Source: a virus
Taxonomy: Duplodnaviria > Heunggongvirae > Uroviricota > Caudoviricetes
IMG/VR virus record: IMGVR_UViG_3300018475_000095
Strand: one strand, 5' to 3'
Length of the DNA stretch: 64,000 nt
Within the stretch, counting starts at the first letter, position 1; each line of letters opens with the position of its first letter. A model generated the notes under the pieces. It was given only the letters and a program-made list of their open reading frames with translations, was not told the DNA's origin and searched no databases. The position numbers and the translations under genes are program-made. This document shows, piece by piece, positions 7,380-63,833 of the stretch.

Positions 7380-8249
7380 TTACTCCTTTAACCCATGCGC
7401 TTCATCTAAATCTAATTTATCTTCTTCGAAGAATTCTTCACTATCATAAATTTTTGCTAACTCATCTTTATATCTTGTTAAATGATTTTCAATGGTATCT
7501 TTTATATTGTTAGATATTATTACTTTATCATATCCTTCTTTATAGCCCTTATCATCTAGCATACTTATTTTCTTTCTTAATATAGATACTTTTTTATCTA
7601 ATTCAGCTGTTTCATTTAGAGATTCTTCTGCTACTTCTTCGATTGTATCTAAGATAACCTTAGTGTGACTTATACTATTATATTGTCTATCAATCGCTAT
7701 ACCTAAAAGTTTACCTCTTATATAACCATCTTCATATTCAATTTCAACAGTTTTATTTATAAAAGGACTTAAAGCCTTTATTAATTCAGTATTTTGTTCT
7801 TGATAATCTTCATCATAACCTCAGTAATCTGAGTGATAATTAAATTTTTCAGCTTCATTGACTGTTTTAATTAGTTTATAATAATGATCTACTTCACTAA
7901 GGGATGAAACATCTAATTCTTCTACTTCTTTATTGCCGTATGTACTATCGAATATTAAATAAGATATATCTTCTATTTCCTCGTTAGATTCTTTTAATGA
8001 TTCATCTATATCATTTTCTTTTATATTTTCAATATCTTGAGCTAAGTATTCTAACGGCTGTATTAGATCATTTCTAATATATGTAGCTAATTCTTTATAA
8101 GTAGTTGCTTTAGTATATGCGCCTCTTATAGTATTTCTTATCTCATAGATAAAACTATTCATGTCATCTAATACATTTAAATCAACATCATAGTTATCTT
8201 CTAACTCCCACCCGTCGTTAATATCTTCTAATAATTTTTTAAATTGCAT
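7380..8249 (-). CDS. hypothetical protein with one in-frame TGA (7821-7823), probably read as Trp
   Basis: Track ORFs 7821..8249 and 7380..7562 are in the same frame. The 258 nt between them are open (verified codon by codon), so a single TGA separates two open halves. Confidence 0.55.
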
Positions 8250-9115
8250 TATGCGTCTCCTTCAATATATGGAAGATTTATTATATCTTCTCTTAATAAT
8301 TTTAATTTCGTTATCTCAATTATCATCAGATGTTTTATATTTAACCAGTAAGATAATTCTGAATTAGGTTCAATTATTAATTTTAAGTCTTCATTTTCTC
8401 TAGCTTTAAACACTAAATATATTTGATCTTTTATTCTAGTTGATTTCAAAAAACCATATTTGAAATAAAGGTTACCTAATTGATTTATTTCTTCAAAATC
8501 TAGTTTAACGAGATAATACCTATTACTAATAAATTTAGCATTTAAAGTAACTTCTTTATTTTCACTTTCTTTAATTATTAAACCTATTTTAGCTTGTTCT
8601 CTATTTAGCACATTAAAATCAGTATTATTTTCAGTTAATTGTAATTCTTTATACTCATTTTTATATGAATAGCCAGGTAGATAATTTATAGTTCTATCTA
8701 GTATTATTTTTAACCATGTAGATTTATGTAAATAATTTAAATCTACTAATATTGGTTCTTTTATATATACTTCGTTGATATCTTCTGTAGACTCAAATAT
8801 TAGATGTACTTTTATTTTCTCTTGCTTGCTGTAATCTATGACTGATATATTATTCCATTTTAAATATTTTGGGAAACGTTTATCTATATCCAAAGTATTT
8901 TTATTAAGTATGCCTATCTTAACTTCTGTGATATCTTTCGAAGCAGTCATATAATTACATCTGAAATATAATTTTGTTAGATCTGGTAAAATCAATTCTT
9001 GTTCAATACCAAATATTTTTGAACTAGAAGTAAGTTTGCCATTTTCATATCTGCAGTTTATAAATTTTCATTGATCGTTTTCAAATTTTGTATCAAGTAA
9101 TAAATTATATGACAT
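8249..9115 (-). CDS. hypothetical protein with one in-frame TGA (9068-9070)
   Basis: AAGGAGA RBS followed by ATG at 9115..9113, then 15 codons, a TGA, and an open frame running into track ORF 8249..8995. Confidence 0.55.
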
Positions 9116-9617: not shown

Positions 9618-11342
9618 TTAATAATGCATACCTTCTTCAGGGTCTTCATCCATAACTTCGTGAGGTATTTCATTTAATATATCAGAAGCTTCTGCTTCTC
9701 CGTCTTCTATAGTCTGGGTATTAGGAGATATTGTGCTTAAAGAAGTTTCAAGCATGCCTACATGGTTCATTTCTTCATTAACTATATCTTTAAATACTTT
9801 TGCAATATCATGATAACCTTCTAATTCTGCTGCTACTATAGCATCATTATAATCTTGAATTGCGTCTCATTCTTCTTTAATTAGTTTAGTTAATTCAGCT
9901 GCTAATCCTGCTTCTGGACCTGGTTGAATTGAATCTGGTGTTATTTCACCCCCATCCTCGATAGTAGTTCCATCAGTATAATCTTCTTTTAATTCTTGTT
10001 CTAATTCTGCAGCTTCAATTCTGTCACCGAGAGAACCTTCTTCTCTTTCTTTAACCATTTTTTTAATAGTCTCTTCTCTCGCTCTTTCTTCTGCCGCTTT
10101 TTGTTCATCTTCAAAAGATTCTTCTAACTTGCCACCATTTCTCCAAGTTAAATAAACTGTATCATATGGGATTTTAAAAGCTTTAGATATAATTTCAAAT
10201 ATGCCTTCTCTTACTGCGCTATCGAAGCCTTCTCCATCTTCTGAAGCTATTCTATAAAAATCTTCTCCTGATTGCATTTCTGACCATATATCAGCGATAG
10301 TTTTTGTTGGGTGTATTTTATCTAATTGAAATTCTTCTGGGGATATTTCTGCGTAAACTTCTTTTATTTTTCTTTCAGGTCTAATATCAAATTGAGCATA
10401 GAAGTCTTCAAAAGATTCTTTAACTATCTCAGTATCTTCTAACAATCTGATACCTTTTCTAATATCTTCATTTTCAGTTGGTCTTACAGAAGTTATTTCA
10501 ATATCTTTATCGGGTTTCTCATCTAAGAATTTCTCTTTAGCTTCTTTTTCATTAGAAGCTTTAACTCTTACTGCACCATATCCACCATATTCAAATCCCT
10601 CTCTATTATAATGAATAGTAAATTCTTTTTCTAAATTATTAATATCTTCTTTAATAATTTCTTTTTCTTTAAACCCCAAATCTTTTAAAACTTGTTTAGC
10701 ATATGTTGGATTTGTTTTGCTTTGCTTAACTATTTTATCACCATCATATATTACGATAGTTCCATCATCTTTTATATCAAAAGACATTTCTTTGCCGGCT
10801 GCGCCAGAAGTGCTATATATTTCTTCTTCTAAGCTTTCAGTGTCTATATAAAGAGAAGGTATACCTAATGTTGATTTAACATAATACTTAAAGCCATACT
10901 TATCTACGATTGCTTTAGCATCATCAAGATCTTTTTCATCTTTTATAAATTCGTATGATTTATCTTTTCTACTAAGTTGTATCTGACCTTCAGGTTGTCT
11001 CTTTCCTATCCTATAGCCAATTGGATCTGCGTTAACTAGATATTTAGCTTTACGTAATTCATCATATAAATCATCTAATATATCTTCTTTAGTTTTCTCT
11101 TTCTTTTCATCTAAAATATCTTCAAACAAACTTTCATCTAAATGCATTTTCTTTGCACCACTAACCATTTTAGGATTTTTTGGTTTTTCATCATGTTTAG
11201 GTTCTGCTTGTATTTTAGTGAACTCTGCTTTCTTTTTTTCTGCTTTTTCTATATCTCTGATAGCAGCTGCATAAGTTTGATCAACTTCACCATGATCTTC
11301 TTTCTCTACTGGAGCAAGTCCTATATTTTCATTCAATATCAT
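9618..11342 (-). CDS. acidic hypothetical protein with in-frame TGA (9867-9869)
   Basis: Track ORF 9867..11342 continues after the TGA for 82 more sense codons to a TAA at 9618-9620 (verified). Confidence 0.5.
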
Positions 11343-24070: not shown

Positions 24071-25240
24071 TTAATCTTCTTTTTCTAATTTATAACCTAA
24101 TAAATTCATTTTCTTATCTTTAGATAATTCTTTCCATTCTTGCTTTATAAAATATTCTATTGGGTCTATATCTAAATATTTAAATAGAAACCCTGATAAG
24201 TCTTTATGTTCAGTTAAAATATAATTAGCTAGTTCTTTTCGTTTTTCTTTTTCATTTTCATAGAGGAAAGTATTACTTTTAAATAACATATCATCAATAG
24301 CATCATATATTTTATTTTGCATTTCTTTATATTTAGTTTCTATTTCATTAAATAAATCAGTATATTCTGGGAATAGTCCTAAAAATTCTGATTGCTCATT
24401 CTTTTCTATAATTGAAAGAATTTTTGCTCTTGAATTAACTCCATTATTTTTTAAATAATGTGCAGCTACGTATGCAGGTGATTTAATCTTAATTCTTTTC
24501 CAATATTTATCTACTACAACAAATCCTTCTTCATCATAGCCCATATATTCTACTCTATTCAAGCATTCTTTTAAATTTTGAAAAGGAAATTGTTTTGGAG
24601 TTTTAATAAATTTACTCAACTCAAGAGAATTTGGATCTAACTCTTCAAATGCGAATTTGCATCTTACGCCAATCAAGTATAAAGCATCTTTTCTATATGG
24701 AACAACTACTCTAGATTCTGGAGTTACTAATTCAAATGTATAGCAGTATAATCTATTCAAGCATTCAAACATAGAAGAATTGTTTGGAAAAGTATAATTT
24801 GAGAGAGCTCTGTCAAATAAATCTCTAAAAGATATTCCAAAGTCTCCAACAGGAGCATTACTTGCATCTAATTCACTTGAAGTAGACACCCTCCATTTAT
24901 GTAAGTAATCATCATACCACACAAGCATCTTAGATCCATCTACTTTTTCTAATACTTTTGCACTATCCCAGTCTATCTTATCAGCAAAACTTTCTTGGAC
25001 ATTAAAAAATTTATAGAAAGATAAAGCTGCTGGCTCTAAAATATTTTTGTCTATAATAAGACCTCTACATTCTCTGCATATATCTTCATTAAAATCTGAG
25101 TTTATTTGATTATATTTTAATAATACATAATTTTCATCTTCGTTTATGAATAAATTATAAGGAGCAGCTTGTAGCAACTCTCTCCAATTTTCATGACTCT
25201 TCATAAATTGAATAGTTTTAAGCATTTTCTTCCTCCTCAT
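24071..25240 (-). CDS. RNA ligase, Rnl1-like nucleotidyltransferase family
   Basis: EKVDGS is the KxDG adenylation motif in an Rnl1-like context; 389 aa. Confidence 0.65.
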   Translation of the reverse strand: MRRKKMLKTIQFMKSHENWRELLQAAPYNLFINEDENYVLLKYNQINSDFNEDICRECRGLIIDKNILEPAALSFYKFFNVQESFADKIDWDSAKVLEKVDGSKMLVWYDDYLHKWRVSTSSELDASNAPVGDFGISFRDLFDRALSNYTFPNNSSMFECLNRLYCYTFELVTPESRVVVPYRKDALYLIGVRCKFAFEELDPNSLELSKFIKTPKQFPFQNLKECLNRVEYMGYDEEGFVVVDKYWKRIKIKSPAYVAAHYLKNNGVNSRAKILSIIEKNEQSEFLGLFPEYTDLFNEIETKYKEMQNKIYDAIDDMLFKSNTFLYENEKEKRKELANYILTEHKDLSGFLFKYLDIDPIEYFIKQEWKELSKDKKMNLLGYKLEKED

Positions 25241-25308
25241 ATAATTCTACTTTTTCAAGAAAATAATTTTTCTTGAAAGAACCATTCTTCTCTACTTTAT
25301 CTAAATAT

Positions 25309-34821: not shown

Positions 34822-35232
34822 TTATTTTAAAGCATCCATAGCTTCATTTGCTAATTTATCTGCCCTGTTATTAAATTCATTATCTGAGTGTCCTTTTACT
34901 TTTATGAATCTAATATCTTTAAATTTATTTATATATGTATACAGTTCTTCCCATAAATCTAAATTAGCTTTTTTATTCCAATTTAAATTAATTGTACTAA
35001 CTACATATTGGCTATCTGAATATACTTCAATAGGAATATCATATACTTTTAATGCTTTTAACCCTTCTATCACAGATAAAATTTCCATTTTATTATTAGT
35101 TGTATTTCGAAAAGCATTTTTTAGTTCTTTATATTGATCTTGGTACTGAAGCACTATCCCATAACCACCTATGTTTTCTGCAAATTGATTTCCTCTACAA
35201 GCACCATCAGCATATATCTTAATTTTCTCCAT
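34822..35232 (-). CDS. rnhA: ribonuclease HI
   Basis: YADGACRGN, MEILSVIEGL, SDSQYV and KGHSDNEFNNRADKLA match RNase H catalytic blocks. Confidence 0.85.
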   Translation of the reverse strand: MEKIKIYADGACRGNQFAENIGGYGIVLQYQDQYKELKNAFRNTTNNKMEILSVIEGLKALKVYDIPIEVYSDSQYVVSTINLNWNKKANLDLWEELYTYINKFKDIRFIKVKGHSDNEFNNRADKLANEAMDALK

Positions 35233-36490
35233 TTAAGTATCTCCTTGTAATTTCAGATAAAGTTTCTATTGTGTTTAGTTGGGAATTCTCCATAACTTTG
35301 CCTAATAAGAAATTAAGAACCTTACCTATCTTCTCACCACTTATATCAAATGTAGATTGAAGAAAGTGCCCATCTATTGCCAAGTCTTGTAATCTATATG
35401 GTTGACTTGTAATTTCTGACAAATCTATTCCTTCTATTTTTGTGTAAATACCCAAATACTTGCATACGTATGCATGTTCAAATTTATTGAATAGTTGCTT
35501 GATTGTTAGGACAATATCTTGTTGCTGAACATCTTCCATAAACTTTGACATCTTATAATAGCTAATAACCTCTTTGATTTGTTGGTTACTATATTTATAT
35601 AACCTCATCCAAATTTCTGCATCTATCATTGACTTATACTTATTCAATATTGAATACAACTTTAACATAGGTGGGTTGTCATTATCTATATCTATGATGA
35701 CCTGGTTACTACCCCATTTACTTACTTTGTTTTGAGGTATCTCAAATATCTCTGCTAGTGTTTCTATTGTTGAATTTAAAGTTTCAGAATTACCTTTTGA
35801 ATATTCTAATATCTTCTTAACTTCTTCAGTAATTCTTTCTTTTGATACATTCTTTAAGAGACTACCAGTACCCGCTATAACATTGCTTGTTGCATTCTCT
35901 AACTCAAAATTATACTTACAAGCAAATCTAATGCCCCTTAAAATTCTCAAAGCATCTTCTTTTATTCTAACCTGTGGGTCTCCTACTGCTTTAACTATTT
36001 TATTTTTAATATCTTCAACACCATTATGTGGGTCTACTATACCTACTAATGGGTTATAAGCAATAGCATTCATAGTAAAATCTCTTCTATCTAAATCATC
36101 TATAATAGATTCACCAAAAGTTACATTATTTGGTCTTCTACCATCAGTGTAATCGCTATCATATCTAAATGTGGTTATTTCATAAATACCTGCAAGATGT
36201 TCATATTTATTTAATTTATATTTTTCTATAACTTCAATAGTCATAGTGCCATATTTTTCTCCTGTTGGAATAACTTTAAAATAAATATCCATATCACTCT
36301 TGTGAAAACTATTATCTTCAAATAGTTTCTTTGTTTCAGCAGGTAAAGCACTTGTTGCTATATCCCAATCTTTTGGTTCAATACCTAATATAGAATCTCT
36401 AATAGCGCCACCAACTGCATATGCTGCATAACCATTTTCATTTAACATGTTTATTAGTAATTCAACATATTTTGGTAATTTTATCTCCAT
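35219..36490 (-). CDS. cca: tRNA nucleotidyltransferase (CCA-adding enzyme / poly(A) polymerase family)
   Basis: YAVGGAIRD...DWDIAT is the class II head-domain motif. Confidence 0.8.
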   Translation of the reverse strand: MEIKLPKYVELLINMLNENGYAAYAVGGAIRDSILGIEPKDWDIATSALPAETKKLFEDNSFHKSDMDIYFKVIPTGEKYGTMTIEVIEKYKLNKYEHLAGIYEITTFRYDSDYTDGRRPNNVTFGESIIDDLDRRDFTMNAIAYNPLVGIVDPHNGVEDIKNKIVKAVGDPQVRIKEDALRILRGIRFACKYNFELENATSNVIAGTGSLLKNVSKERITEEVKKILEYSKGNSETLNSTIETLAEIFEIPQNKVSKWGSNQVIIDIDNDNPPMLKLYSILNKYKSMIDAEIWMRLYKYSNQQIKEVISYYKMSKFMEDVQQQDIVLTIKQLFNKFEHAYVCKYLGIYTKIEGIDLSEITSQPYRLQDLAIDGHFLQSTFDISGEKIGKVLNFLLGKVMENSQLNTIETLSEITRRYLNGEN

Positions 36491-36491
36491 A

Positions 36492-36923
36492 TTAATCGTC
36501 CTCTCTTACAATTAATCTAACAATTTCACAATTAAATAATTGGTCAATATCGATATGATGTTGAGCATCTTCTTCTGTTTTAAATTTTAATACAGTAGGA
36601 TCTGCAATATTAGTGTAATTTGTACCTAAACCATACTCATTTATAAATTCACCTGTATCTCTATTTTTAATAACATACATATACATGTCTGTAAACCAGA
36701 ATTTAATTCTATTTGGAATTACAATTAATACATTGCATTTATCACAACATCTATCTCCAGAAGTAGTAATTAATGGTCTTATGTCATTTCCATAATTATC
36801 ATATTCAACATTGCAAAAACAGCATCTTCCTTTCTTTTTCATATTACTCTCCTTTTCTATATCCTGCATTCCATAATGCAATAGCAATTCTAAGTGAATC
36901 ATTATCTTCTGGATCATATTCAT
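36492..36923 (-). CDS. Cys-rich hypothetical protein
   Basis: CCFCN and CCDKCN. Confidence 0.5.
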   Translation of the reverse strand: MNMIQKIMIHLELLLHYGMQDIEKESNMKKKGRCCFCNVEYDNYGNDIRPLITTSGDRCCDKCNVLIVIPNRIKFWFTDMYMYVIKNRDTGEFINEYGLGTNYTNIADPTVLKFKTEEDAQHHIDIDQLFNCEIVRLIVREDD

Positions 36924-43619: not shown

Positions 43620-43934
43620 TTAATCTTCATACCAACCATAGTTAGATAAATAATCTTTTCCAATAGGATCTACATATTTTCTAATATAATTTTTAACTTG
43701 ATTTTTAGCTATAGTTATACTGTCATCTCAAAATGGTTTTCTAATTAATAAATCTGCTTCTATAACATAATCACCATAACTTTTAGCTTGATTAATTTCG
43801 TCTGTAAAGTAAAAGCCAAATCCATGCCCTAATGCATGAGCTCCAATGAATTGCTGCTCAAATCTGTCGAATTCTGCATTAGATCCATGATATGCGTGGT
43901 ATAAATTATTAATCTCTTCCTTTAAAAATTTCAT
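43620..43934 (-). CDS. small H-Y-E-class ADP-ribosyltransferase-like protein with in-frame TGA (43728-43730)
   Basis: AYHGSNAEF and GHGFGFYFTDE resemble the PARP HGS and GKGIYFAD motifs. After the TGA, 35 more sense codons run to a TAA (verified). Confidence 0.45.
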
Positions 43935-44016
43935 TACGTCTCCTAAATAAATATCTTATACTTATTCCACCTATACCGTTTCCTAAAACTATAATTAATA
44001 ATCTTAATAATACCTC

Positions 44017-44493
44017 TCAAGAATATATAAAAGTAAAATTAAAGTAAAACATGTCTGCAATACAGTGTTCTAATCCTATAACTACAAAGATAATAACTCC
44101 AAAGAAAAGAGATAAAATACCTCTTATATCTTTGAACTTATTGTATCCTTCTACCGCTATATAAATTAATATGTTACATAAAATTCCGAGTATAAATAAA
44201 CTTATATAGGAATCACTTAATTTGATTTCACATATTGCATTTGCATACTCTATTAGATTAATTAACCGTGTAGCTCTACACATTAAAGCTAGTAATAATG
44301 TTCCTATAAAATTACCAAGTAAAGTTATAACTACTTCTAAATAATTTTTCTTTTCTATAACATAACAAATCTTACCTGTGAATAAATTTAATTTAAAAGT
44401 AAGTATAACAAATAATCCTACAGTAAATAAGAAAGCACCCACTATTTTATCAGGAGATGATAGATAGGCTAAACAGCCTATCCCTATAAACAT
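44017..44493 (-). CDS. polytopic membrane protein
   Basis: Four or five TM helices. Confidence 0.5.
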   Translation of the reverse strand: MFIGIGCLAYLSSPDKIVGAFLFTVGLFVILTFKLNLFTGKICYVIEKKNYLEVVITLLGNFIGTLLLALMCRATRLINLIEYANAICEIKLSDSYISLFILGILCNILIYIAVEGYNKFKDIRGILSLFFGVIIFVVIGLEHCIADMFYFNFTFIYS

Positions 44494-44530: not shown

Positions 44531-47500
44531 TTATTCAATAGGAACTCCTGTGTGTTTGACTCTATCTTCTACTTCCGCTATCTTACCTTCATTAAAATTA
44601 TGATAATCTGTAGAAACATATCCTGTAACTCTTCTTAATCTTTCAATATTATCTGAACCACATTCTGGACATTTATCATTCATTTCTTCTTGATGTCCGC
44701 AGTCCATACAAACATCATTTGGTACGTTTATAGCAAAGTAAGGTATATCTTTATCCATAGCATAATTAACTAATTTTTCAATAGCTTCTATATTATGAAT
44801 TGAAGATGAATCTAATTCTACATAAGTAATACACCCAGCTGAAGAATAACCTGTTAATTGACTTTCAATATCTATTTTATCAAAAGCATTTATGTTATGG
44901 TATACTGGAACATGCATTGAATTAGTAAAATATTTTCTATCAGATATATTTGGAATAATACCATATTTTTCTTTAAATTTAGTCATAGCAGTTTTACATA
45001 AAGATTCTGCAGGAGTATAATAAACACCAAAATTTAATTTATATTGTTCTTTAAAATAAGCACATTTATCTTTAAATAATTGTTCTATCTTTTTAGCAAG
45101 TTCCATACCTTCTTTTGTAGTATGGTCTTTTCCAATTAATATTTGTAAACATTCAGCAAGACCTAATTGACCTATAACTAATGTTCCATGTTTTAAAGCA
45201 CTCCTAATTCCTTCTTCTGGAATATAACCAGCCATTGTGTTATTTTCATACATAAATGGGGCTGATTTAGGTGATTGGCTACAGATATGCTCAAATCTTT
45301 CTATCAAAGAGTCTTTTGCTTCATTTATTTTACATTCAAGTAATCTCATAAATACATCTATATCTGATTCTTCTGAAGCTCTTGTACATTCTTTAGATTT
45401 CATTGCTATTGTTGGTAATATAATAGTAGTAGGTGCAATATTTCCTCTACCATCTTTTTGTTGTTTTAAACCATTAATATCCCAACCATTTGCAGTTCTA
45501 CAGTTATGCATTATAATATCTGAACCTATAAATGAACCAGTTTCAGTACCTATATCGTAGCTATCAACTGCTTCCCAATGCCAACATATATCAGTTATTT
45601 CTAACTCTAAATTATCAGCTCTATAAAGTTTATCACCTATTTTTAATTGATCTGCTCTTGTAAATTTATCTCCTGTCCATAGAGGGTGATCTTCAGTACA
45701 AGACAAACAATATTCTTTATCGTATTCTTTGTAATAGATATGCATCATATACGGAGTATTTAATTTATCATTTTTAAAGATATGTTTGATCTTTACCCAT
45801 TTATTATCTCTATCTAATACTTTAATATCAAATTCAGATAAATCAATCAATTCTTGTTTTTTACTCAAATCAACTTTAAATACAGGTCTATCATATACTC
45901 TATGCCTAGATTTTTGAGTAATTAACTTATAATATTTCTTATCTGTTCCTCTAGGATTTATATTTGCATTCTTTTGAATATAAAGGTTTTCAGCTTCTTT
46001 ATAATCTTCAGTTATTTCTAATACTTTAAATTCATAATTAGCTGTATCAATATCCCCAAAATTTATTCCTGCATCAATCCCACCTGTTTTGCCTATAGCA
46101 CATTTATGCTCAGCGCATCTTCTAGAAATAGAACTTGAACTTCCAATATATGTGACATCTTCTGGTAAATAAGTTATTGAATAAACACCTGGTAGATTAG
46201 GTAATCCAGATTTTTCTTGATAATGTCTACCTAAAGGCTCTTCATTTAATTTTTCTCTGTTATACCAAATCTGTGTTTTCTTATAATTTTGTAAATCATC
46301 TGTTTTACAATAATCAAATAAGTCTCTGATAGATAAGTCAATAGGTTCTTCATTTCCTATTTTAACTGTTAGATGTTCATGACCACTCAAAGCACCCATT
46401 GTACTAAAATATGTTTTTGGATCATTTACATCGTAACCTGCATTACCACTCCAATCAACTGAGGCATAATTTGGATACAATCTCTTTGAAGTTGATTTTA
46501 ATGCTAACTTAAATAAGTCATAATTTGGATCGCCCGGTTTTCTGTTAACACCTTTCATGCACTGGAATATACCACAAGGGAATATACTTGTTCTATGATA
46601 TTTTCCTAAACCTTCAATAGATACATTTAACAATTCTTCTGTTATCATTCTACCTTCTGGTAAAGTGCAAGTTCCATAATTTATAGAGCTAAATGGTAGT
46701 TGTTGTCCACTTCTTGATTGTAATGAATTTAAATTGTGATATAATGCTTCAACTGCTTGATGTGTTTCTTTTTCAGTTTGTCTCATAGCATATTCATAAG
46801 CATCTTGATTTAGTTTATATTTTTCGTCAATTATAGAAGTTTCTTTTGTAATTCCTTCTAAATACTTTTCATTACCGAACCAATATAATCCTTCTTTATA
46901 ATGTTTATAAAAACTCTTTCTTACATAAGGGACCATTGACCAATCAAAGTGAGTATATGATACACCACCAAATTGACATAAACTTTGTAATTGCATTATA
47001 ACAGCTGACAATTGCATCGCTGTATTTACTGTTCCAGCAGGTCTTATATCTGTCTGTTTAACTTTAAATCCTTTTGCTAATAAATCATCTAAAGGAATTG
47101 ATAAACAATTATGCATACCACTTGCATAAGCATCTAAATCATGTATATAAATTTCATTATTAATATGATTATTTCTAGTAGTTTCTGATACTAAATTATT
47201 AAGTGCATATTCTTTTAATATAGTTCCAAATGCTTCTTTCTCTCTTCCACTGAAAGTATTTTCATCTAGGTTTGCATTTGAATTTTCTACATTCTTTGCT
47301 TCTAGTTTAGCTTTAACTTTATTCATTAGTTCAGTATAACTATTTCTAGCTAGTTTATGTAATTGTCTATATTCTATGTATGCTTTTGCTTGTTCATATT
47401 TATTAGCTTCCATCAAAGTTAGTTCTACAATATCTTGAATTTGTTCTACAGTATAATTTTTTCTTTTATCTAATTGTTGTGTTACTTTATTTGTTAATTC

Positions 47501-47626
47501 TGTTATCACACCATCATTAACATACTCACCTTTAGGACAACAATCTTCAAAACAACCTAATATTGCTTTCCATATTTTATACTCATCAAATTTTTGCTTT
47601 GATCCATCTCGTTTTATAATTTGCAT
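44531..47626 (-). CDS. nrdD: anaerobic ribonucleoside-triphosphate reductase, interrupted by an intein-like insertion
   Basis: Class III RNR; C-terminal CMDCGHQ...CPECGS zinc ribbon plus glycyl-radical RVTGYVS. At 1031 aa it is far longer than typical NrdD. Confidence 0.9.
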   Translation of the reverse strand: MQIIKRDGSKQKFDEYKIWKAILGCFEDCCPKGEYVNDGVITELTNKVTQQLDKRKNYTVEQIQDIVELTLMEANKYEQAKAYIEYRQLHKLARNSYTELMNKVKAKLEAKNVENSNANLDENTFSGREKEAFGTILKEYALNNLVSETTRNNHINNEIYIHDLDAYASGMHNCLSIPLDDLLAKGFKVKQTDIRPAGTVNTAMQLSAVIMQLQSLCQFGGVSYTHFDWSMVPYVRKSFYKHYKEGLYWFGNEKYLEGITKETSIIDEKYKLNQDAYEYAMRQTEKETHQAVEALYHNLNSLQSRSGQQLPFSSINYGTCTLPEGRMITEELLNVSIEGLGKYHRTSIFPCGIFQCMKGVNRKPGDPNYDLFKLALKSTSKRLYPNYASVDWSGNAGYDVNDPKTYFSTMGALSGHEHLTVKIGNEEPIDLSIRDLFDYCKTDDLQNYKKTQIWYNREKLNEEPLGRHYQEKSGLPNLPGVYSITYLPEDVTYIGSSSSISRRCAEHKCAIGKTGGIDAGINFGDIDTANYEFKVLEITEDYKEAENLYIQKNANINPRGTDKKYYKLITQKSRHRVYDRPVFKVDLSKKQELIDLSEFDIKVLDRDNKWVKIKHIFKNDKLNTPYMMHIYYKEYDKEYCLSCTEDHPLWTGDKFTRADQLKIGDKLYRADNLELEITDICWHWEAVDSYDIGTETGSFIGSDIIMHNCRTANGWDINGLKQQKDGRGNIAPTTIILPTIAMKSKECTRASEESDIDVFMRLLECKINEAKDSLIERFEHICSQSPKSAPFMYENNTMAGYIPEEGIRSALKHGTLVIGQLGLAECLQILIGKDHTTKEGMELAKKIEQLFKDKCAYFKEQYKLNFGVYYTPAESLCKTAMTKFKEKYGIIPNISDRKYFTNSMHVPVYHNINAFDKIDIESQLTGYSSAGCITYVELDSSSIHNIEAIEKLVNYAMDKDIPYFAINVPNDVCMDCGHQEEMNDKCPECGSDNIERLRRVTGYVSTDYHNFNEGKIAEVEDRVKHTGVPIE
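45506..46396 (-). mobile_element. intein-like (Hint) element within nrdD carrying a GIY-YIG endonuclease domain
   Basis: Block-A-like ALSGHEHLTVKIG...IRDL, GIY-YIG core GVYSITYL...YIGSS...R...EH, block-B-like TEDHPLWT, and block F/G SYDIGTETGSFIGSDIIMHN followed by Cys. Confidence 0.55.
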
Positions 47627-47720
47627 TGATATCCTCCTTATGATTTATACAGTGAATAAAATAGTTCTTATAAACGTTTTAAATGTTCATAAGAACTACT
47701 ATATCTCCTTTTCTTTGAAT

Positions 47721-48895: not shown

Positions 48896-49483
48896 TTACT
48901 GTAAAGTTTCAAAAGTATTTACACTCAGTTCATGACAAACTCGTATCTCATAATCAGTTTCTGTTAATCTCTTTTTATACTCTCTCGATTGTAATTGACC
49001 TTGAATTAAAATCTTGTCCCCAACATTTAATTTATTTAATGCCTTAGCACACTTCCCTCATGCAACACAAGGTAAATATACATTTAATACTTGCCCATTA
49101 TTTTCTATATTGTTTGCTAATATAAAATCTAAAACATCTTTTCCAGATGATGTTTTTCTTAAATTATTCTTTTTACATATTCTACCATCTATGTATGCGA
49201 GATTATTAGGACTTTCTTCTGCTTCATCAAAATAAGTAAATACAAATAATTCTACTTTATTTCTATCTTCTTCTTGTCTATTAAAAGTTCTAATATTACC
49301 TAGAATAGATATTTCTTGATTTTCTTTATATGGGTTTGAAAACTTTTTAAATTTTAAATTTATAATATCTTCTTTTCCATTTTCTCTTCTAGTTATTAGA
49401 TTAGCTTTATAAAATTCTATATCTTGTATATAATGAGAATATTCTATATTTTTTATTATTCCATTTAATTGTATCTTGTTCAT
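48896..49483 (-). CDS. ssb: single-stranded DNA-binding protein with in-frame TGA at 49058-49060
   Basis: The N-terminal OB half is track ORF 49058..49483. After the TGA the frame continues GKCAKALNKLNVGDKILIQGQLQSREYKKR...TDYEIRV to TAA 48896. The TGA sits at the conserved CV(T/A)W Trp position of SSB. Confidence 0.75.
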
Positions 49484-52087: not shown

Positions 52088-52630
52088 TTATAAGTATTTA
52101 GTTGACACTAGTTCTACTAATATATCATACAAACTTGTTCCTCTAAAATCATTCTCTCTTGATAAGATATATCCAAAATCATATTCAAATAATTCTATAT
52201 AACCATCAGCAGCTTCTATGTCTATCTCTTCTTCTTTACCTTTTGGAATAAATACTAACGGATACATAAAAGGTTCAATGGTTTCATTTACTAACTCTTT
52301 ATTATAATAACCATCTAAACCTATTTCAATATAGTTATCAATAGCGCCAAAAGTTTCTATGAAATCTTTTTGACTTTCATAATAACCTTTCTTATAAGCA
52401 TCTATTATTAAATCTCTATGTATTATATCATATGAATTACCTATCATATACTTATCTATTCTAGCATCATATAATATTCTATATAAATCTGGGTTATTTA
52501 TCAAAATATCTTTTATATTGTATTCACTTAAATTTAGTTTGCTGCTACTTAAAGATTCTTCTAATCTCTCTTTAACTTTTATTTGATTAGAATTAAATAC
52601 TATTTTTTCTTTAATCAACCAATCGACCAT
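52088..52630 (-). CDS. hypothetical protein
   Basis: 180-aa ORF. Confidence 0.5.
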   Translation of the reverse strand: MVDWLIKEKIVFNSNQIKVKERLEESLSSSKLNLSEYNIKDILINNPDLYRILYDARIDKYMIGNSYDIIHRDLIIDAYKKGYYESQKDFIETFGAIDNYIEIGLDGYYNKELVNETIEPFMYPLVFIPKGKEEEIDIEAADGYIELFEYDFGYILSRENDFRGTSLYDILVELVSTKYL

Positions 52631-53355
52631 CCTGCATTTAAATACTTGTCTAAGTATTCTTTAGGTACTCGAGTATTTTTGGTGCCATCATTAATACCAA
52701 TAGTCCCTCTTAATTTATCTGCTCGTTTTTTCTTTGTTTCTTCTGACTGGGTAATACACCCCTTCAAACCTTTATTCCAAGGTATCTGACCTTTATGTGA
52801 GTCACTCATACGCTTTCTCTGTAATTCAGTTGCTTTATGCCCTAAATGATTAGTGTTACCTTTACTCCGTTCTCTACATTTCTCACAATACTCTGCTGAC
52901 ATTTTCTTGCCTTTATTCCAAGGTACTTGATTTAAATGTGCTAGTCTTTGTTTCTCACGAGTTTCATCTGATACATCATAAGTTTCTCTACTAGCCAAGC
53001 GTTTAGCTATCCATTCCTTTGATTGGGTCTTGCCAGAGTTTGTATCCCCACCATCTCCACCCGATGCCATATTGTAACAAAACTCTTTGCCAAATGAGTC
53101 TCTATAAAACTTTATTCAATAAATCTCTTTCTTATTTAACTCTTCTATAGTAGAGGCAGTGTCAATTGTCTCGACACCGAAATTACACTTACCATATTTA
53201 TTAATTGCCTCATAAAGTAATGATAGATTTCTATGTTCTTGAGCATATATTTCAGATGCTTTTAAGTGTTGGTTATATCTGGTCTCAACACTTTTAGTTG
53301 TCTTCCCAATGTATACTTTCCCATTTGAGTTGTTGGTTATTTTATAGATATACAT
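52615..53355 (-). CDS. GIY-YIG homing endonuclease with NUMOD3 DNA-binding repeats, one in-frame TGA (53116-53118)
   Basis: N-terminal IYKITNNSNGKVYIGKT...R...H catalytic domain (track ORF 53116..53355). After the TGA, 15 sense codons lead in frame into track ORF 52615..53070, which carries PWNKGxK NUMOD3 repeats (verified). Confidence 0.7.
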
Positions 53356-57199: not shown

Positions 57200-57330
57200 T
57201 CTCCTTTAATAATATTAAGTTAAATAGCTCTGGTAACTTAGTAGGTGCACCATTACCAAAGCTAAGTTACTTAAAATGAGTAAGTTTGGTTAAAACAGCT
57301 CAACCAGCGTGAAGGTACTTACTCATTGAG
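57200..57330 (-). ncRNA. structured element immediately 3' of the suppressor tRNA
   Basis: Two perfect stems: ATGAGTAAGT/ACTTACTCAT (57276-85 with 57317-26) and GTAACTTAG/CTAAGTTAC (57233-41 with 57262-70), the latter enclosing the GGTGCACC palindrome. Confidence 0.35.
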
Positions 57331-57331
57331 C

Positions 57332-57425
57332 CAGGGGTTGCAGGAATCGAACCCGCGCTATAGGTTTTGGAGACCTATTGTTACGGTTTTGAAGACCGCT
57401 TGACTTCCAATTATCGTACACCCCT
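57332..57425 (-). tRNA. tRNA-Trp-like opal suppressor, anticodon UCA, with a second CCA-anticodon-like hairpin in the variable region
   Basis: Hand-folded from AGGGGTG (A1:U72, G73). D-loop AATTGGAA. Anticodon arm GCGGT-CTTCAAA-ACCGT. A 26-nt variable arm contains ATAGGT-CTCCAAA-ACCTAT. T-arm GCGGG-TTCGATT-CCTGC. No encoded CCA. Confidence 0.6.
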
Positions 57426-57745
57426 ACATGGATAAGTTGTTTCTTGGCTGTCTTTCCGCAAGTGTCAAGATTCTTTTTGTTAAGATTACTCTAATTTATC
57501 ATTGGCTCACTTATCAAGAACCAAACGTTTGCTAGTGGAACGCTACACCCTATCACTCCGTTGGTATAGGACAACATGGTTTTAAAGCGACTTTTCCTTG
57601 TCGAAATTATTTACAAGACCTGAAAAAGATATTCTCCCAACGAATAGTTTTTTAAAATTGCTGTAAAGGTCTTATTTTTTACAAGACACAGTATAAAACG
57701 AATTTCAAGTTCCTTATGTAGAATTGCTGTATGTGTCTTATTATA

Positions 57746-59251
57746 TTATACAGTTTTTAATGTAATTTCTGCATATCTATCTTTAGTTATTTCTTTTAGC
57801 AATGCTATATATGGATCTATTTCATTTGATAAAACCATATTTACGACTGCTGGACTAAATCCTGATACTAAAGCTACCCCTAAATCATTTTGAATTACTG
57901 GGATTGTCTTTGTTCTTGAATTAACATTCCAGAAAGACATTTTAGGTAATTTATAACCTGCATTCTCATATCTTTGTCTTATAGCATCAAATAATTTAGC
58001 ATCTGGAGCAGTATGATCCCATCTATTAGTTCTTGTTGCGTTTGTTGTAGCACATTCATCAAATTCCATATCTGATATAATTAAAATATTTGGTATCTCT
58101 TCTTGAGACATATTATTTTTAACTGCTGTTTTTAATATTAAATCAAATACAGCTTCAATATTAGTATTAGCAACCTCTGCTTCTGCATAAGCTACATTTA
58201 ATTTATCTTTTAAATTATCATATTTTTCAAAAGAAACTAATCTTGGTTGATTCGAAAAAGTGATAAATTTATCTTTAAACTCACCTTTACATCTTTCTGC
58301 AAAATAAATAGATAATGCAGTTGCAACATCTAATGCAGATGTGCTAGTCTTTCCTACATTACAAGTCATCGAACCTGAACCATCTCTAACTACTATAGTT
58401 GAACTATCTCCTTGAACATAATCAGGTAAAGATTTCCATAATTCTTCTAATGTGATATCTTTATTTCTACAATTTCTATACTTGCAAACTATATCATGAG
58501 GGAATAGAGTTGAAGCATTTATTTTTGTCTCACCTTTTTCAAGTTTAGATAAATAATCTCTTCTTCTATCTTCATCATGTCTTAAAAATGCCCCCATATA
58601 TTTTATGTTAGCTTGAGATGGTACATTTTCATATTTTATCTCTTCCCATTTATTTGAAGAACATTTTCTTTCTAACACATCTAAATGGTTTCTTAAATCA
58701 GAAAGCATTTTTCTATAATCTTTTTCTGACATTCCTAAATAAGATTTAATTCTCCTTGCTTTTCGTTTTGTTTCGCTTGAAGATGTATTTATTGATGGCA
58801 TCCATTTAGCTAATAATGATATAGGCTCTTTATTAACAAGATTTTTAGCATCTTTTCTCAATTGGGTTTTTACGTATTCAAGCATTTGTTTTTCTAGTTT
58901 AGTACCAAAGAAAACAAATAAATCATCGTATCTACCAAATTCAACAATCCAATCAAATACTCTTTCATCTAATTCATCTATAATTTCAGTTACACATGTT
59001 CTAAATAGTCTTCTTTCTCCTAAACCTTCTCTTGCATCTCTAGCATAGAATAGGTATTTAAGAGCGAGTTCTTTGTTTTCAAACCATGCTTTTTTAAATT
59101 CTATCTCAATTTCTTCTTCACTTGAATCCCTAAATGAAGATATTTTAAAGTTAAAGTCTAATAATGCTTTACCAGTAGCAGCATACCCTTTTGCACCATT
59201 TTCTGTGGTTGAGGTATTTAATTCATTTTTTAATCCTTGTAAAAATGTCAT
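57746..59251 (-). CDS. vWA-domain protein with Ro60/TROVE-like architecture (helical N-domain plus MIDAS)
   Basis: VVRDGSGSM is a MIDAS motif, preceded by a roughly 280-aa helical region. Size and domain order resemble Ro60/Rsr. Confidence 0.6.
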   Translation of the reverse strand: MTFLQGLKNELNTSTTENGAKGYAATGKALLDFNFKISSFRDSSEEEIEIEFKKAWFENKELALKYLFYARDAREGLGERRLFRTCVTEIIDELDERVFDWIVEFGRYDDLFVFFGTKLEKQMLEYVKTQLRKDAKNLVNKEPISLLAKWMPSINTSSSETKRKARRIKSYLGMSEKDYRKMLSDLRNHLDVLERKCSSNKWEEIKYENVPSQANIKYMGAFLRHDEDRRRDYLSKLEKGETKINASTLFPHDIVCKYRNCRNKDITLEELWKSLPDYVQGDSSTIVVRDGSGSMTCNVGKTSTSALDVATALSIYFAERCKGEFKDKFITFSNQPRLVSFEKYDNLKDKLNVAYAEAEVANTNIEAVFDLILKTAVKNNMSQEEIPNILIISDMEFDECATTNATRTNRWDHTAPDAKLFDAIRQRYENAGYKLPKMSFWNVNSRTKTIPVIQNDLGVALVSGFSPAVVNMVLSNEIDPYIALLKEITKDRYAEITLKTV

Positions 59252-59421: not shown

Positions 59422-60162
59422 CTATTCTTTTATTTTTAACACATTTATTCTTTTTGAATAAGCGGTCATTGCATCTAATGCTATAATTCCAGCATCTTCA
59501 AATGGTTCAAAGCACTCATATTCACTGCCATATTTCTTGTGTAGATTAAAATGCCCATACCCTGAATGCCAATGACCACATACTATAGTTTTATCTTTTT
59601 CTCTTACCCTATCATTCCATGCTTTCATACCATTGACCCATCGAGCACATTCCCAGTGATAATCATTACTATTTCTCCAATCTGGATTATAATTCAAAAT
59701 AGCATTGCTTGTCTCATAAGGTTCAGTTGCTGTTGTAAATGAAGGTATCCAACCGTGTACTATAATATATTTATCAACTTCAAAATAATTTACACAATTC
59801 TTTTTTATGAATTTAAGTACTTTCTTTAAATATCTTTCGTCTTGTAACTGCATACATGTAGATATAGTTCCATTTGAATAGTGATATGAAGAAGCAGCAC
59901 CACCTGTAAAATTTAACTCCTTAACACATTCTTCTAACAAATCTTCATGATTACCTCTTACATATACAAATCTTTTCTTATTGTTTAACCATTGAACAAA
60001 TTTAAATAATTCTACAGCCTCATTACCTCTATCAAATAAATCACCCGCCACTACTAGTATATGGTCTGGATTTTTTAAATCAAATTTTTTCTTCTTTAAT
60101 TCTTTCTTAAGTATGGAATAAAAACCATGGACATCACTAACTACAAAATATGTTTTACTCAC
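59422..60162 (-). CDS. calcineurin-like metallophosphoesterase
   Basis: SDVHG, GDLFDRG and GNHE motifs. Confidence 0.7.
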   Translation of the reverse strand: MSKTYFVVSDVHGFYSILKKELKKKKFDLKNPDHILVVAGDLFDRGNEAVELFKFVQWLNNKKRFVYVRGNHEDLLEECVKELNFTGGAASSYHYSNGTISTCMQLQDERYLKKVLKFIKKNCVNYFEVDKYIIVHGWIPSFTTATEPYETSNAILNYNPDWRNSNDYHWECARWVNGMKAWNDRVREKDKTIVCGHWHSGYGHFNLHKKYGSEYECFEPFEDAGIIALDAMTAYSKRINVLKIKE

Positions 60163-61493: not shown

Positions 61494-61567
61494 TGGCAGG
61501 CCCTGAAAGACTCGAACTTCCAACAATGGTTTTGGAGACCATAGTTTTACCTTTAAACTAAGGGCCT
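61494..61567 (-). tRNA. tRNA-Trp (CCA)
   Basis: Acceptor AGGCCCT/AGGGCCT (A1:U72, G73), D-stem GTTT/AAAC, anticodon arm ATGGT-CTCCAAA-ACCAT, CCA. Confidence 0.75.
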
Positions 61568-63759: not shown

Positions 63760-63833
63760 TGGCTCCCCGGGTCCGATTCGAACGGACGGCCTATCGGTTA
63801 ACAGCCGAGTGCTCCACCGCTGAGCTATTGAGG
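63760..63833 (-). tRNA. tRNA-Asn (GUU)-like gene with a non-complementary 3' acceptor strand (possible pseudo or chimeric tRNA)
   Basis: Positions 1-65 are canonical: GCCTCAA-TA-GCTC...loop CTGTTAA...GTCCG-TTCGAAT-CGGAC. Positions 66-72 read CCGGGGA, which cannot pair with GCCTCAA. Confidence 0.4.

Follow-up and report, generated by a model that had tools for sequence, protein, structure and literature searches.

A family of phage tRNAs with two anticodon-type arms and its probable role in reading UGA as tryptophan

A stretch of 64,000 nucleotides from a tailed virus (Caudoviricetes; IMG/VR record IMGVR_UViG_3300018475_000095), referred to here as the window, carries on its minus strand at 57332-57425 a tRNA gene with two anticodon-type hairpins between the D arm and the T arm. 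The first hairpin (arm 1) has the anticodon UCA, and the second (arm 2) resembles the anticodon arm of a tryptophan (Trp) tRNA and displays CCA. Such two-armed tRNAs form an old, widespread, and conserved family in many gut and rumen phages. From sequence comparison, the window tRNA is very probably a functional, Trp-inserting opal suppressor belonging to this family. The favoured explanation as a whole is that arm 1 decodes while arm 2 is non-decoding and most likely acts as a handle for tryptophanyl-tRNA synthetase (TrpRS); on balance this explanation seems probable, and the identity of the handle, taken by itself, is proposed only tentatively. Opal suppressor tRNAs in recoded phages are already known, and the second anticodon-type arm appears to be the new element.

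The two-armed tRNA and its fold

Infernal aligned the window tRNA to the general tRNA family RF00005 at full length (model positions 1-71); the score was 38.0 bits, where the gathering score is 29, and 23 nt that separate the anticodon arm from the T arm were treated as an insertion relative to the model. ARAGORN called the gene at 57330-57426 as 'tRNA-SeC (tca)'. A covariance model of the family, R1, was built from a MAFFT alignment of 31 members (A2) in which the window sequence was not included. It matched the window tRNA over its full length (positions 1-94) with 79.7 bits (E about 2.5e-23), twice the RF00005 score, and its next best match in the window was the tRNA-Trp(CCA) at 61497-61567, with 53.3 bits. 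The fold is therefore accepted by both covariance models and by ARAGORN. Both hairpins also form in the minimum-free-energy fold (z = -2.3).

The 5' part of the tRNA reads AGGGGUG UA CGAU AAUUGGAA GUCA A GCGGU CUUCAAA ACCGU AACA, and the 3' part reads AUAGGU CUCCAAA ACCUAU AGC GCGGG UUCGAUU CCUGC AACCCCU G. The parts and the ordinary tRNA-Trp(CCA) used as a comparator are located as follows.

57332-57425, minus: whole two-armed tRNA, 94 nt, no encoded CCA (RF00005, ARAGORN, R1)
57419-57425, minus: 5' strand of the acceptor stem, AGGGGUG, which pairs with 57333-57339 (AACCCCU) (Infernal alignment)
57401-57416, minus: D arm, CGAU-AAUUGGAA-GUCA, with a C10:A25 mismatch and with G18G19 present (Infernal alignment)
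57383-57399, minus: arm 1, the putative decoding anticodon arm, GCGGU-CUUCAAA-ACCGU, anticodon UCA at 57390-57392 (ARAGORN, Infernal)
57379-57382, minus: 5' linker AACA from arm 1 to arm 2 (family range 0-7 nt)
57360-57378, minus: arm 2, the extra hairpin and Trp anticodon-arm mimic, AUAGGU-CUCCAAA-ACCUAU, CCA at 57368-57370
57357-57359, minus: 3' linker AGC (UAGC if the arm-2 stem is taken as 5 bp), equivalent of the canonical variable loop
57340-57356, minus: T arm, GCGGG-UUCGAUU-CCUGC (Infernal alignment)
57332, minus: discriminator G73 (Infernal alignment)
61494-61567, minus: ordinary tRNA-Trp(CCA), comparator (ARAGORN, RF00005)

The original prediction, which was drawn from the letters of the window, had described a Trp-type acceptor with A1:U72, G73, and the AGGGG pairs, a canonical CUUCAAA loop with U33, UCA, and A37, a C10:A25 mismatch, and the lack of an encoded CCA, and all of these were found on reading the sequence, the acceptor features in the Infernal alignment as well. 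The 26-nt region that it had placed between the anticodon arm and the T arm does hold a second hairpin, with a 6-bp stem and the 7-nt loop CUCCAAA. The minus strand, a further mismatch (G7:A66), and the A15/C48 combination had not been part of that description. The likeness that it had seen to the tRNA-Trp(CCA) at 61494-61567 is real but partial: AGG...CCUG and a 13-nt identical core in the second hairpin, GGUCUCCAAAACC, are shared.

In the acceptor, G73, A1:U72, G2:C71, G3:C70, G4:C69, and G5:C68 are determinants of bacterial TrpRS (list from PMC9976931). The decoding arm has U34-C35-A36 in place of the C34-C35-A36 of bacterial tRNA-Trp, and CCA occurs only in the loop of the extra arm. Two other assemblies of this 154-kb phage contain the tRNA with no change in sequence. 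Its gene is 3.3 kb away from the tRNA array, and a promoter-like site at 57488-57517 is weak, being no better than in shuffled sequence.

Conservation and origin of the second arm

Pattern scans yielded more than 100 relatives of the window tRNA. A first scan of IMG/VR, in which both loops were imposed (UCA loop ... CCA loop ... T loop), gave 21 loci, 19 of which held the same kind of tRNA. In an unbiased scan of viral sequences, only the UCA arm and the T loop were fixed, with 24-42 free bases between them, and 65 distinct matches were obtained. Forty-one of these are distinct 7/5 tRNAs with G73 and mostly A1:U72, that is, Trp-like tRNAs with a long variable region, and in 40 of the 41 the free region holds a hairpin with the loop N-U-C-C-A-A/U-N. 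Another 21 are selenocysteine (Sec) tRNA-like genes with an 8-bp acceptor, none of which has CCA in the loop of the variable arm (0/21). Two further scans served as controls. With a CCA anticodon and a long gap, Trp-like and class II-like tRNAs were returned, and no CCA was found in the extra-arm loops among the sequences inspected. With the same UCA arm and a normal short variable loop, only 19 loci were returned, about 4-8 of which are Trp-like by eye. Since these compare with 41 Trp-like tRNAs with the long region, the two-armed form is, for this arm sequence, the majority form of phage tRNA-Trp(UCA).

Many of the relatives lie in surroundings recoded at TGA, where the content of long open reading frames (ORFs) is 2- to 5.7-fold higher under code 4. 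A megablast of the window locus against INPHARED gave no match. Among cultured phages, Thomasclavelia TR-TP1 and TR-TP2 come nearest but are distant; the tRNA query matched neither of them, and the first 50 kb of TR-TP2 have no annotated tRNA.

The conservation of arm 2 was assessed in 44 distinct members. The five loop-proximal pairs of its stem are 93% paired, as compared with 45% and 37% when the partners are shifted, and each stem position shows 4-6 pair types with many double changes. In the loop, U33, C34, C35, and A36 are invariant (44/44), and A37 and A38 are kept in 41 and 39 members, respectively. When the five-helix structure was scored on alignment A2, 97.9% of the cells were paired, a value reached by none of 500 shuffles, and slid controls gave 40-50%; in helix 4, the extra helix, three of the four scored pairs have changed on both sides. 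Arm 2 is a selected helix with a selected loop, far beyond chance. Its geometry is variable, with a stem of 5-7 bp and a 5' linker of 0-7 nt across the members. The window tRNA has the loop and linker of the family, namely CUCCAAA on a 6-bp stem and AGC or UAGC to the T stem, within the 3-5 nt that define the family.

The 3' linker is 4 nt long in 36 of the 44 members, mostly NGGU, and its last base can form a Levitt-type pair with D-loop position 15 (A15/U48 in 28 members and G15/C48 in two). R1 places the anticodon arm of the ordinary tRNA-Trp(CCA) on arm 2 and deletes arm 1, and by blastn the half of the window tRNA that comprises arm 2 and the T arm is most similar to ordinary phage tRNA-Trp genes. 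Because of this alignment, the 4-nt linker with its Levitt pair, and the blastn match, arm 2 with its 3' linker is taken to correspond by homology to the anticodon arm and variable loop of the ancestral tRNA-Trp. Arm 1 directly follows position 26, as a normal anticodon arm does. Both arms are attached at one junction, 0-7 nt apart, which is unlike a class II variable arm; an assignment of the extra arm to that type is ruled out by its linkers of 4-5 nt and 3-4 nt and by the conserved 7-nt loop.

The members of the family resemble one another more than they resemble the adjacent tRNA-Trp(CCA). Therefore, the duplication is old, and the gene has spread rather than having been born in the window phage; a repeated local duplication of the tRNA-Trp of each phage is ruled out on the same ground. 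The internal duplication of the anticodon arm that had been suggested from the window alone thus stands as far as homology is concerned, as seen from the R1 alignment and the variable-loop-like linker, but it is neither recent nor local to this phage.

Other unusual tRNAs and RNAs were noted in the course of the scans. Related phage contigs with a two-armed tRNA (L010, L012, L013, L018, and L019) have a gene for a tmRNA as well, which bears its own tag peptide, and two others (L016 and L017) additionally carry an amber suppressor (CUA) of ordinary length. Contigs of jumbo phages of 140-450 kb (L087-L117, e.g. L087, L088, L089, and L091) carry tRNA genes in which a CCA anticodon and Trp-like A1:U72/G73 ends are combined with a long variable arm that has a loop other than CCA; in some of these tRNAs the D arm is of class II type. 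Another Trp-like class (L138, L140, L143, L234, L235, L240, L241, L243, and others) shares the GUGUAAUGGUAGCAC D arm, which is followed by a conserved insert, GUCCGAGAC-(covarying hairpin)-GGAGUAGGCA, and then by a UCCAAA loop and the T arm; the insert looks like a structured element, possibly K-turn-like, that replaces arm 1. Finally, UCA tRNAs with G1:C72, U73, and a long arm with (A/U)CCA in its loop were found in L034, L054, and L082.

Reading of UGA and possible roles of the two arms

In-frame TGA codons were located in the following genes of the window.

48896-49483, minus: SSB-like gene, TGA at 49058-49060; the Pfam SSB domain spans the TGA
52600-53355, minus: GIY-YIG + NUMOD3 homing-endonuclease gene, TGA at 53116-53118 and also at 52615-52617, four codons before TAG
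43909-44493, minus: formate/nitrite-transporter-like gene, TGA at 44017-44019; Pfam Form_Nir_trans spans the TGA, and the PDB alignment continues across it
9618-11342, minus: gene for a 574-aa protein, TGA at 9867-9869; rubrerythrin-like C-terminus past the TGA
7380-8249, minus: gene for a 289-aa protein, a candidate only, TGA at 7821-7823; more than 50 codons onward with no start codon, and no homology support

The TGA of the SSB-like gene is aligned to a conserved Trp of the solved SSBs 5odp and 6bhw ('vvaWGr' and 'cvtWrr'). In the endonuclease gene, Pfam places GIY-YIG upstream of and across the TGA at 53116-53118 and NUMOD3 downstream of it, and public code-11 gene calls divide the gene at this codon. 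The 574-aa gene has no start codon after its TGA and a weak Rubrerythrin match across it (E = 0.0012). When the seven TGAs that 'end' ORFs of at least 80 codons were followed, the frame continued past all seven, for at least 35 codons in five cases, and the downstream frames read for four of these five long continuations have no start codon near the TGA. Overall, about 11 in-frame TGA codons occur in the window versus 177 TGG. Long-ORF content of the window increases by 10% under code 4, most structural genes probably being located in the other ~70 kb of the 154-kb genome. The standard code, suggested by the small change in long ORFs, is ruled out by the continuous frames and domains across the TGAs. 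These alignments show TGA=Trp sites in the phage, which uses TGA in this way sparingly. Such sparse use fits the model of Borges et al. (10.1101/2021.08.26.457843), in which a suppressor is acquired by a low-GC phage of near-standard code with rare TGA stops, and in-frame TGAs build up afterwards. The proposal of a Trp-derived opal suppressor is supported by the acceptor determinants and by the in-frame TGAs within Pfam domains, one of them at a conserved Trp of SSB.

The label given by ARAGORN is that of a tRNA-Sec, with which the window tRNA has in common the UCA anticodon, G73, and a long extra arm. However, its fold is 7/5 and not 8/5 (13-bp acceptor/T domain), its D stem has 3-4 bp with an 8-nt loop and not 6 bp with a 4-nt loop, the Sec model is outscored by the general tRNA model, and the genuine Sec-like tRNAs of the same scan form a separate class that lacks the CCA loop. 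The in-frame TGAs are also at Trp positions. With the fold geometry and the Trp positions both contradicting the label, it is considered wrong, and a role in selenocysteine insertion is improbable in the extreme.

Two-armed tRNAs are not confined to phages. When one genome per prokaryotic species was scanned, most matches were genuine tRNA-Sec genes, and a few were two-armed tRNAs. In a Phoenicibacter sp. metagenome-assembled genome (MAG; L144) and in the Coriobacteriia MAG JAUNQF01 (JAUNQF010000023.1; L175), the two-armed tRNA lies among chromosomal genes with in-frame TGA; on reading of their translated ORFs, these neighbours resemble a glutamate symporter, formimidoyltransferase-cyclodeaminase, a glycosyltransferase, UDP-galactopyranose mutase, and phosphate acetyltransferase. 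These MAGs belong to the clade of Eggerthellaceae (code 4) that was recently reported to read UGA as Trp, to lack RF2, and to carry 'a tRNA-Trp(UCA) gene', the structure of which was not discussed (PMC13462651). The two-armed tRNA-UCA, being chromosomal in Eggerthellaceae without RF2, may be the resident UGA decoder there, and this occurrence is indirect evidence that the two-armed architecture is fully functional in translation. ARAGORN labels the two-armed tRNA-UCA of both Eggerthellaceae loci as tRNA-SeC. Automated pipelines may score such genomes as having a tRNA-Sec or as being without a tRNA-Trp(UCA).

Which of the arms is read on the ribosome can be judged from their loops. Among 77 distinct two-armed sequences from metagenomes, for which the arm-1 loop was left free, 72 have CUUCAAA (UCA), and one each has CUUCUAA (UCU) and AUUCGGC (UCG) (loci L237 and L318). 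A loop containing CUA is present in the remaining three (L330, L341 (= L229), and L230), but the scans required a TCCAAA loop in arm 2 and are thus uninformative on the constancy of arm 2 in these CUA variants. At L229, the gene has a length of 93 nt, adjoins a tRNA-Trp(CCA), and is labelled 'tRNA-Pyl (cta)'. In arm 2, position 32 is G in 23 of the 44 members (52%), as opposed to 2 of 1153 distinct ordinary tRNAs from the same loci (0.2%), and the closing pair is frequently U-G or a mismatch. Arm 1 is taken to be the decoding arm from its UCA and CUA anticodons, from the gain in long ORFs under code 4 around many relatives, and from the occurrence of the same tRNA type beside TGA-containing genes in the Eggerthellaceae MAGs. 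The frequency of G32 and the poor closing pair argue that arm 2 is free of the loop constraints of the decoding centre and hence would be non-decoding.

The same observations bear on a scheme in which both arms decode, arm 1 reading UGA and arm 2 reading UGG, each by Watson-Crick pairing, such that one tRNA would serve both Trp codons. In its favour, arm 2 has every element of a Trp anticodon loop (7 nt, U33, CCA, and A37) and stands in canonical register to the variable loop and T arm. However, apart from G32 and the closing pair, many genomes including the window have an ordinary tRNA-Trp(CCA), often adjacent, and from general knowledge U34 already reads G by wobble. With arm 2 in the A site, moreover, arm 1 would protrude at position 26, near the contact with helix 69 of 23S rRNA. 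A two-headed decoder is accordingly very improbable.

The favoured explanation can be described as follows. The tRNA would let the phage translate a few in-frame TGA codons as Trp. Arm 1 (UCA), directly after the D stem, would enter the decoding site of the ribosome, and arm 2, still joined to the T arm by a normal 4-nt variable loop, would keep its U-CCA-A(A) loop and be non-decoding. Arm 2 would present the cognate CCA loop to its usual partner, above all TrpRS, so that charging with Trp could stay efficient and specific while the decoding anticodon would be free to change (UCA, rarely CUA). Because the junction is forked, below the level of 26/44, either arm could stack under the D stem, and a stacking switch between the arms, with arm 2 presented on the synthetase and arm 1 on the ribosome, is topologically possible. 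We infer from the sequences that the tRNA is expressed and charged by TrpRS, that TrpRS would be the reader of arm 2, and that such a switch may take place. A precedent for the charging is found in thirteen phage tRNA-UCA species, which inserted Trp in an E. coli extract (PMC12636597). TrpRS is favoured as the reader since the anticodon is a major identity element of tRNA-Trp (PMC9976931), since host synthetases evolved on CCA, and since the CUA variants would otherwise be prone to lose Trp identity, a tRNA-Trp amber suppressor being charged with Gln in E. coli (PMC9976931). As a further and rather doubtful step, the architecture may separate charging identity, on the spare CCA arm, from reading by UCA and occasionally CUA, and, as a mobile module common in gut and rumen phages, may have enabled the reassignment of UGA to Trp in bacteria such as the code-4 Eggerthellaceae.

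Several points weigh against this explanation. In the crystal structure of E. coli TrpRS with tRNA-Trp, C34 is read mainly by size, and there is no need to tell C34 from U34 (PMC12135181). Ordinary single-armed tRNA-UCA is charged with Trp as well (PMC12636597), so a CCA handle is not obviously needed. The variable stem of arm 2 (5-7 bp) and its 5' linker are a loose geometry for precise docking. Neither TrpRS nor another partner was found near the tRNAs, and thus there is no co-occurrence evidence for a partnership with TrpRS; the search, which used HIGH/KMSKS motifs at all loci taken, is uninformative because the flanks are short. Within the family, the window copy itself is divergent and atypical. 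It differs in the D arm, it has the C10:A25 mismatch in the D stem and a second one, G7:A66, in the acceptor stem, it has A15/C48 where the family has A15/U48, and its 3' flank is GCU in place of CCA, which is encoded by all of the other 15 tRNAs of the window (15/15).

These irregularities, together with the distance from the tRNA array and the sparse use of TGA, are what would be expected if arm 2 were a neutral relic of an old tandem duplication, or if the window copy were a decaying pseudogene and TGA were read otherwise. Yet the loop of arm 2 is invariant although the stem below it has been replaced entirely, and this is so in lineages that differ in D arm and acceptor stem; the two-armed form also outnumbers the single-armed one. 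The window copy scores 79.7 bits with R1, is identical in independent assemblies, and is accompanied by no other UCA tRNA in the ~83 kb examined of the 154-kb genome. The phage also encodes a CCA-adding enzyme:

35219-36505, minus: CCA-adding enzyme, PHROG tRNA nucleotidyltransferase (phrog_2244), E = 8e-54

This enzyme is a candidate for completing the CCA-less tRNA, as it could do judging from its PHROG match. The presence of its gene and the dependence of the SSB gene on TGA decoding argue that the window tRNA is in use, and a relic or pseudogene is quite unlikely.

If arm 2 is functional, it may also be conserved for a partner other than TrpRS. Such a partner could be a UGG-type specifier (in Gram-positive hosts, a T-box leader upstream of trpS or trp genes), an anticodon-loop modification enzyme of the MiaA type, or an anticodon nuclease of the host, for which the arm would be a decoy or shield, or else the arm could help the tRNA to win over RF2 on the ribosome. 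In addition to CCA, the loop has kept U33, A37, and A38, and this fits a base-pairing U-turn loop or MiaA at least as well as a synthetase; the lack of a need for E. coli TrpRS to distinguish C34 from U34 (PMC12135181) points the same way, and the tRNA-repair-type genes of the phage (Rnl1-like ligase, CCA-adding enzyme, and phosphoesterase) hint at a conflict over tRNAs. On the other hand, no candidate partner was found, and no nuclease or T-box is linked to the tRNA in the loci. From general knowledge, a T-box needs the canonical anticodon-to-elbow geometry, and UCA already wobble-pairs with UGG. The G32 in half of the members would also be unusual in a loop that pairs like an anticodon. A partner of this kind is regarded as unlikely, and among single partners TrpRS remains the one that is preferred here.

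Neighbouring genes and comparison with known systems

Directly upstream of the tRNA, at 57746-59251 (minus), a DUF2828/DUF7788 protein of 501 aa with a DGSGS motif is encoded. Relatives of this protein (47% identical) in other viral contigs (L213 and L214) also precede tRNA genes (Met, Glu, and Leu/Gln), and it may be that the family is functionally linked with tRNAs. The adjacent gene had suggested a Y-RNA/Ro60 system, an idea that was dropped as no Rfam match was found, the upstream 320 nt fold no better than shuffled sequence, and the relatives adjoin ordinary tRNAs. Two tandem elements of ~65 nt, each starting with AAUAAGAC..UACAGCAAUU, are located between the DUF2828 gene and the tRNA (~57620-57745, minus). 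The long-range stem that closes them is compensatory between the copies (AAGACAC/GUGUCUU vs AAGACCU/AGGUCUU), and their overall fold energy is no better than that of shuffled sequence.

A tRNA-repair-like gene set on the minus strand (24074-25246, 35219-36505, and 59422-60162), including an Rnl1-type RNA ligase (phrog_562), the CCA-adding enzyme, and a calcineurin-like phosphoesterase, accompanies the array of 16-17 tRNA genes. A partial tRNA at 63771-63827 (minus), matched by Rfam (model positions 8-63) and missed by ARAGORN, is probably, from its position, the complete tRNA-Asn(GUU) present at 8903-8977 in the longer locus L350. At 44531-47644 (minus), a single ORF of 1037 aa encodes the anaerobic ribonucleotide reductase NrdD; only ~71% of it aligns to relatives, in two pieces, and in Thomasclavelia phage TR-TP2 the NrdD gene is split around an HNH endonuclease. 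The alignment suggests an intein or other in-frame insertion in the NrdD of the window. About 9 kb past the left end of the window (L086 12149-12806), several large genes that lack Pfam matches, apart from one faint LRR_5 match, are followed by a gene for a reverse transcriptase (RVT_1); it may belong to a diversity-generating retroelement near tail-fibre genes.

The reassignment of stop codons is known from phages and bacteria, and it raises the mechanistic question of how a host synthetase that has not adapted to a new suppressor tRNA can charge it well and correctly. A second Trp anticodon arm, which is present on most of the tRNA-Trp(UCA) genes found, would be a previously unreported structural solution to charging. 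With five helices, two of them in arms of the anticodon type, these tRNAs would also represent a new class of secondary structure, and they offer a natural template for engineered suppressor tRNAs whose identity is independent of the decoding anticodon.

The tRNA-Trp(UCA) of code-4 bacteria, like the window tRNA, reads UGA as Trp beside a tRNA-Trp(CCA). In Mycoplasma, this tRNA is an ordinary cloverleaf with a short variable loop and no fifth arm. The Eggerthellaceae-type genes, in contrast, are two-armed and belong to the same sequence family as the window tRNA.

The closest systems are the UGA suppressor tRNAs of code-4 gut phages (Borges et al. 10.1101/2021.08.26.457843; Seki et al. PMC12636597), which likewise have a UCA anticodon and Trp identity. 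These phages resemble the window phage in their low GC content, large tRNA set, rare TGA stop, and in-frame TGA. No second anticodon-like arm is mentioned in either study, whereas it is the defining conserved feature of the window tRNA. A further difference is that recoding in the window also extends to early or middle genes (SSB and the homing endonuclease) and is not confined to late ones. Suppressors were detected in 35% of the code-4 phages in the preprint of Borges et al. (10.1101/2021.08.26.457843). ARAGORN labels the two-armed genes as tRNA-SeC, as Pyl, or as undetermined, and this may contribute to the low detection. A second anticodon-type arm is mentioned neither in the phage-recoding papers, in a review of non-canonical tRNAs (PMC7609411), and in the Eggerthellaceae paper (PMC13462651), nor in what full-text literature searches returned, most subscription journals being outside their scope, so that this is no proof of absence. 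Within that mainly non-subscription literature, the remark in the original prediction that the architecture is undescribed for phage suppressors is consistent with what was found.

Altered Trp tRNAs that read UGA as Trp are also known from the Hirsh G24A suppressor and from a tRNA-Trp(CCA) with a 4-bp anticodon stem (PMC13092985). In both, the CCA anticodon is kept and the body is changed, whereas the window tRNA has the cognate UCA, and CCA is found only on the spare arm. Class II tRNAs (Ser, Leu, bacterial Tyr, and Sec) share with it an extra helix between the anticodon arm and the T arm, and EF-Tu and the ribosome accept such long variable arms, which act as identity elements for synthetases (PMC7609411). 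However, class II arms are joined to the core by 1-2 nt and have a short, non-conserved loop, while the two-armed family has linkers of ~5 nt and ~4 nt, a fixed 7-nt loop of the anticodon type, and a canonical variable loop after it.

The mechanism proposed for arm 2, in which a hairpin with an anticodon loop is recognised by the anticodon-binding domain of a synthetase, has parallels in the thrS operator, in the tRNA-like element of HIV-1 with LysRS (PMC5113203), and in the mRNA mimic of yeast HisRS (PMC6542539). Those mimics belong to mRNAs or to viral genomes, where they function in regulation or packaging, whereas arm 2 would act inside a tRNA for its own aminoacylation. Finally, the allo-tRNAs and selC*-tRNA-Cys (Mukai et al.; PMC7609411) are, like the window tRNA, non-canonical: their arms are long, their anticodons read stop codons or are otherwise odd, and they were mined from genomes and are often mislabelled as Sec. 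Their acceptor/T geometry, however, is 8/4 or 9/3 and their identity is Ser or Cys, while the window tRNA has a 7/5 geometry and Trp determinants.

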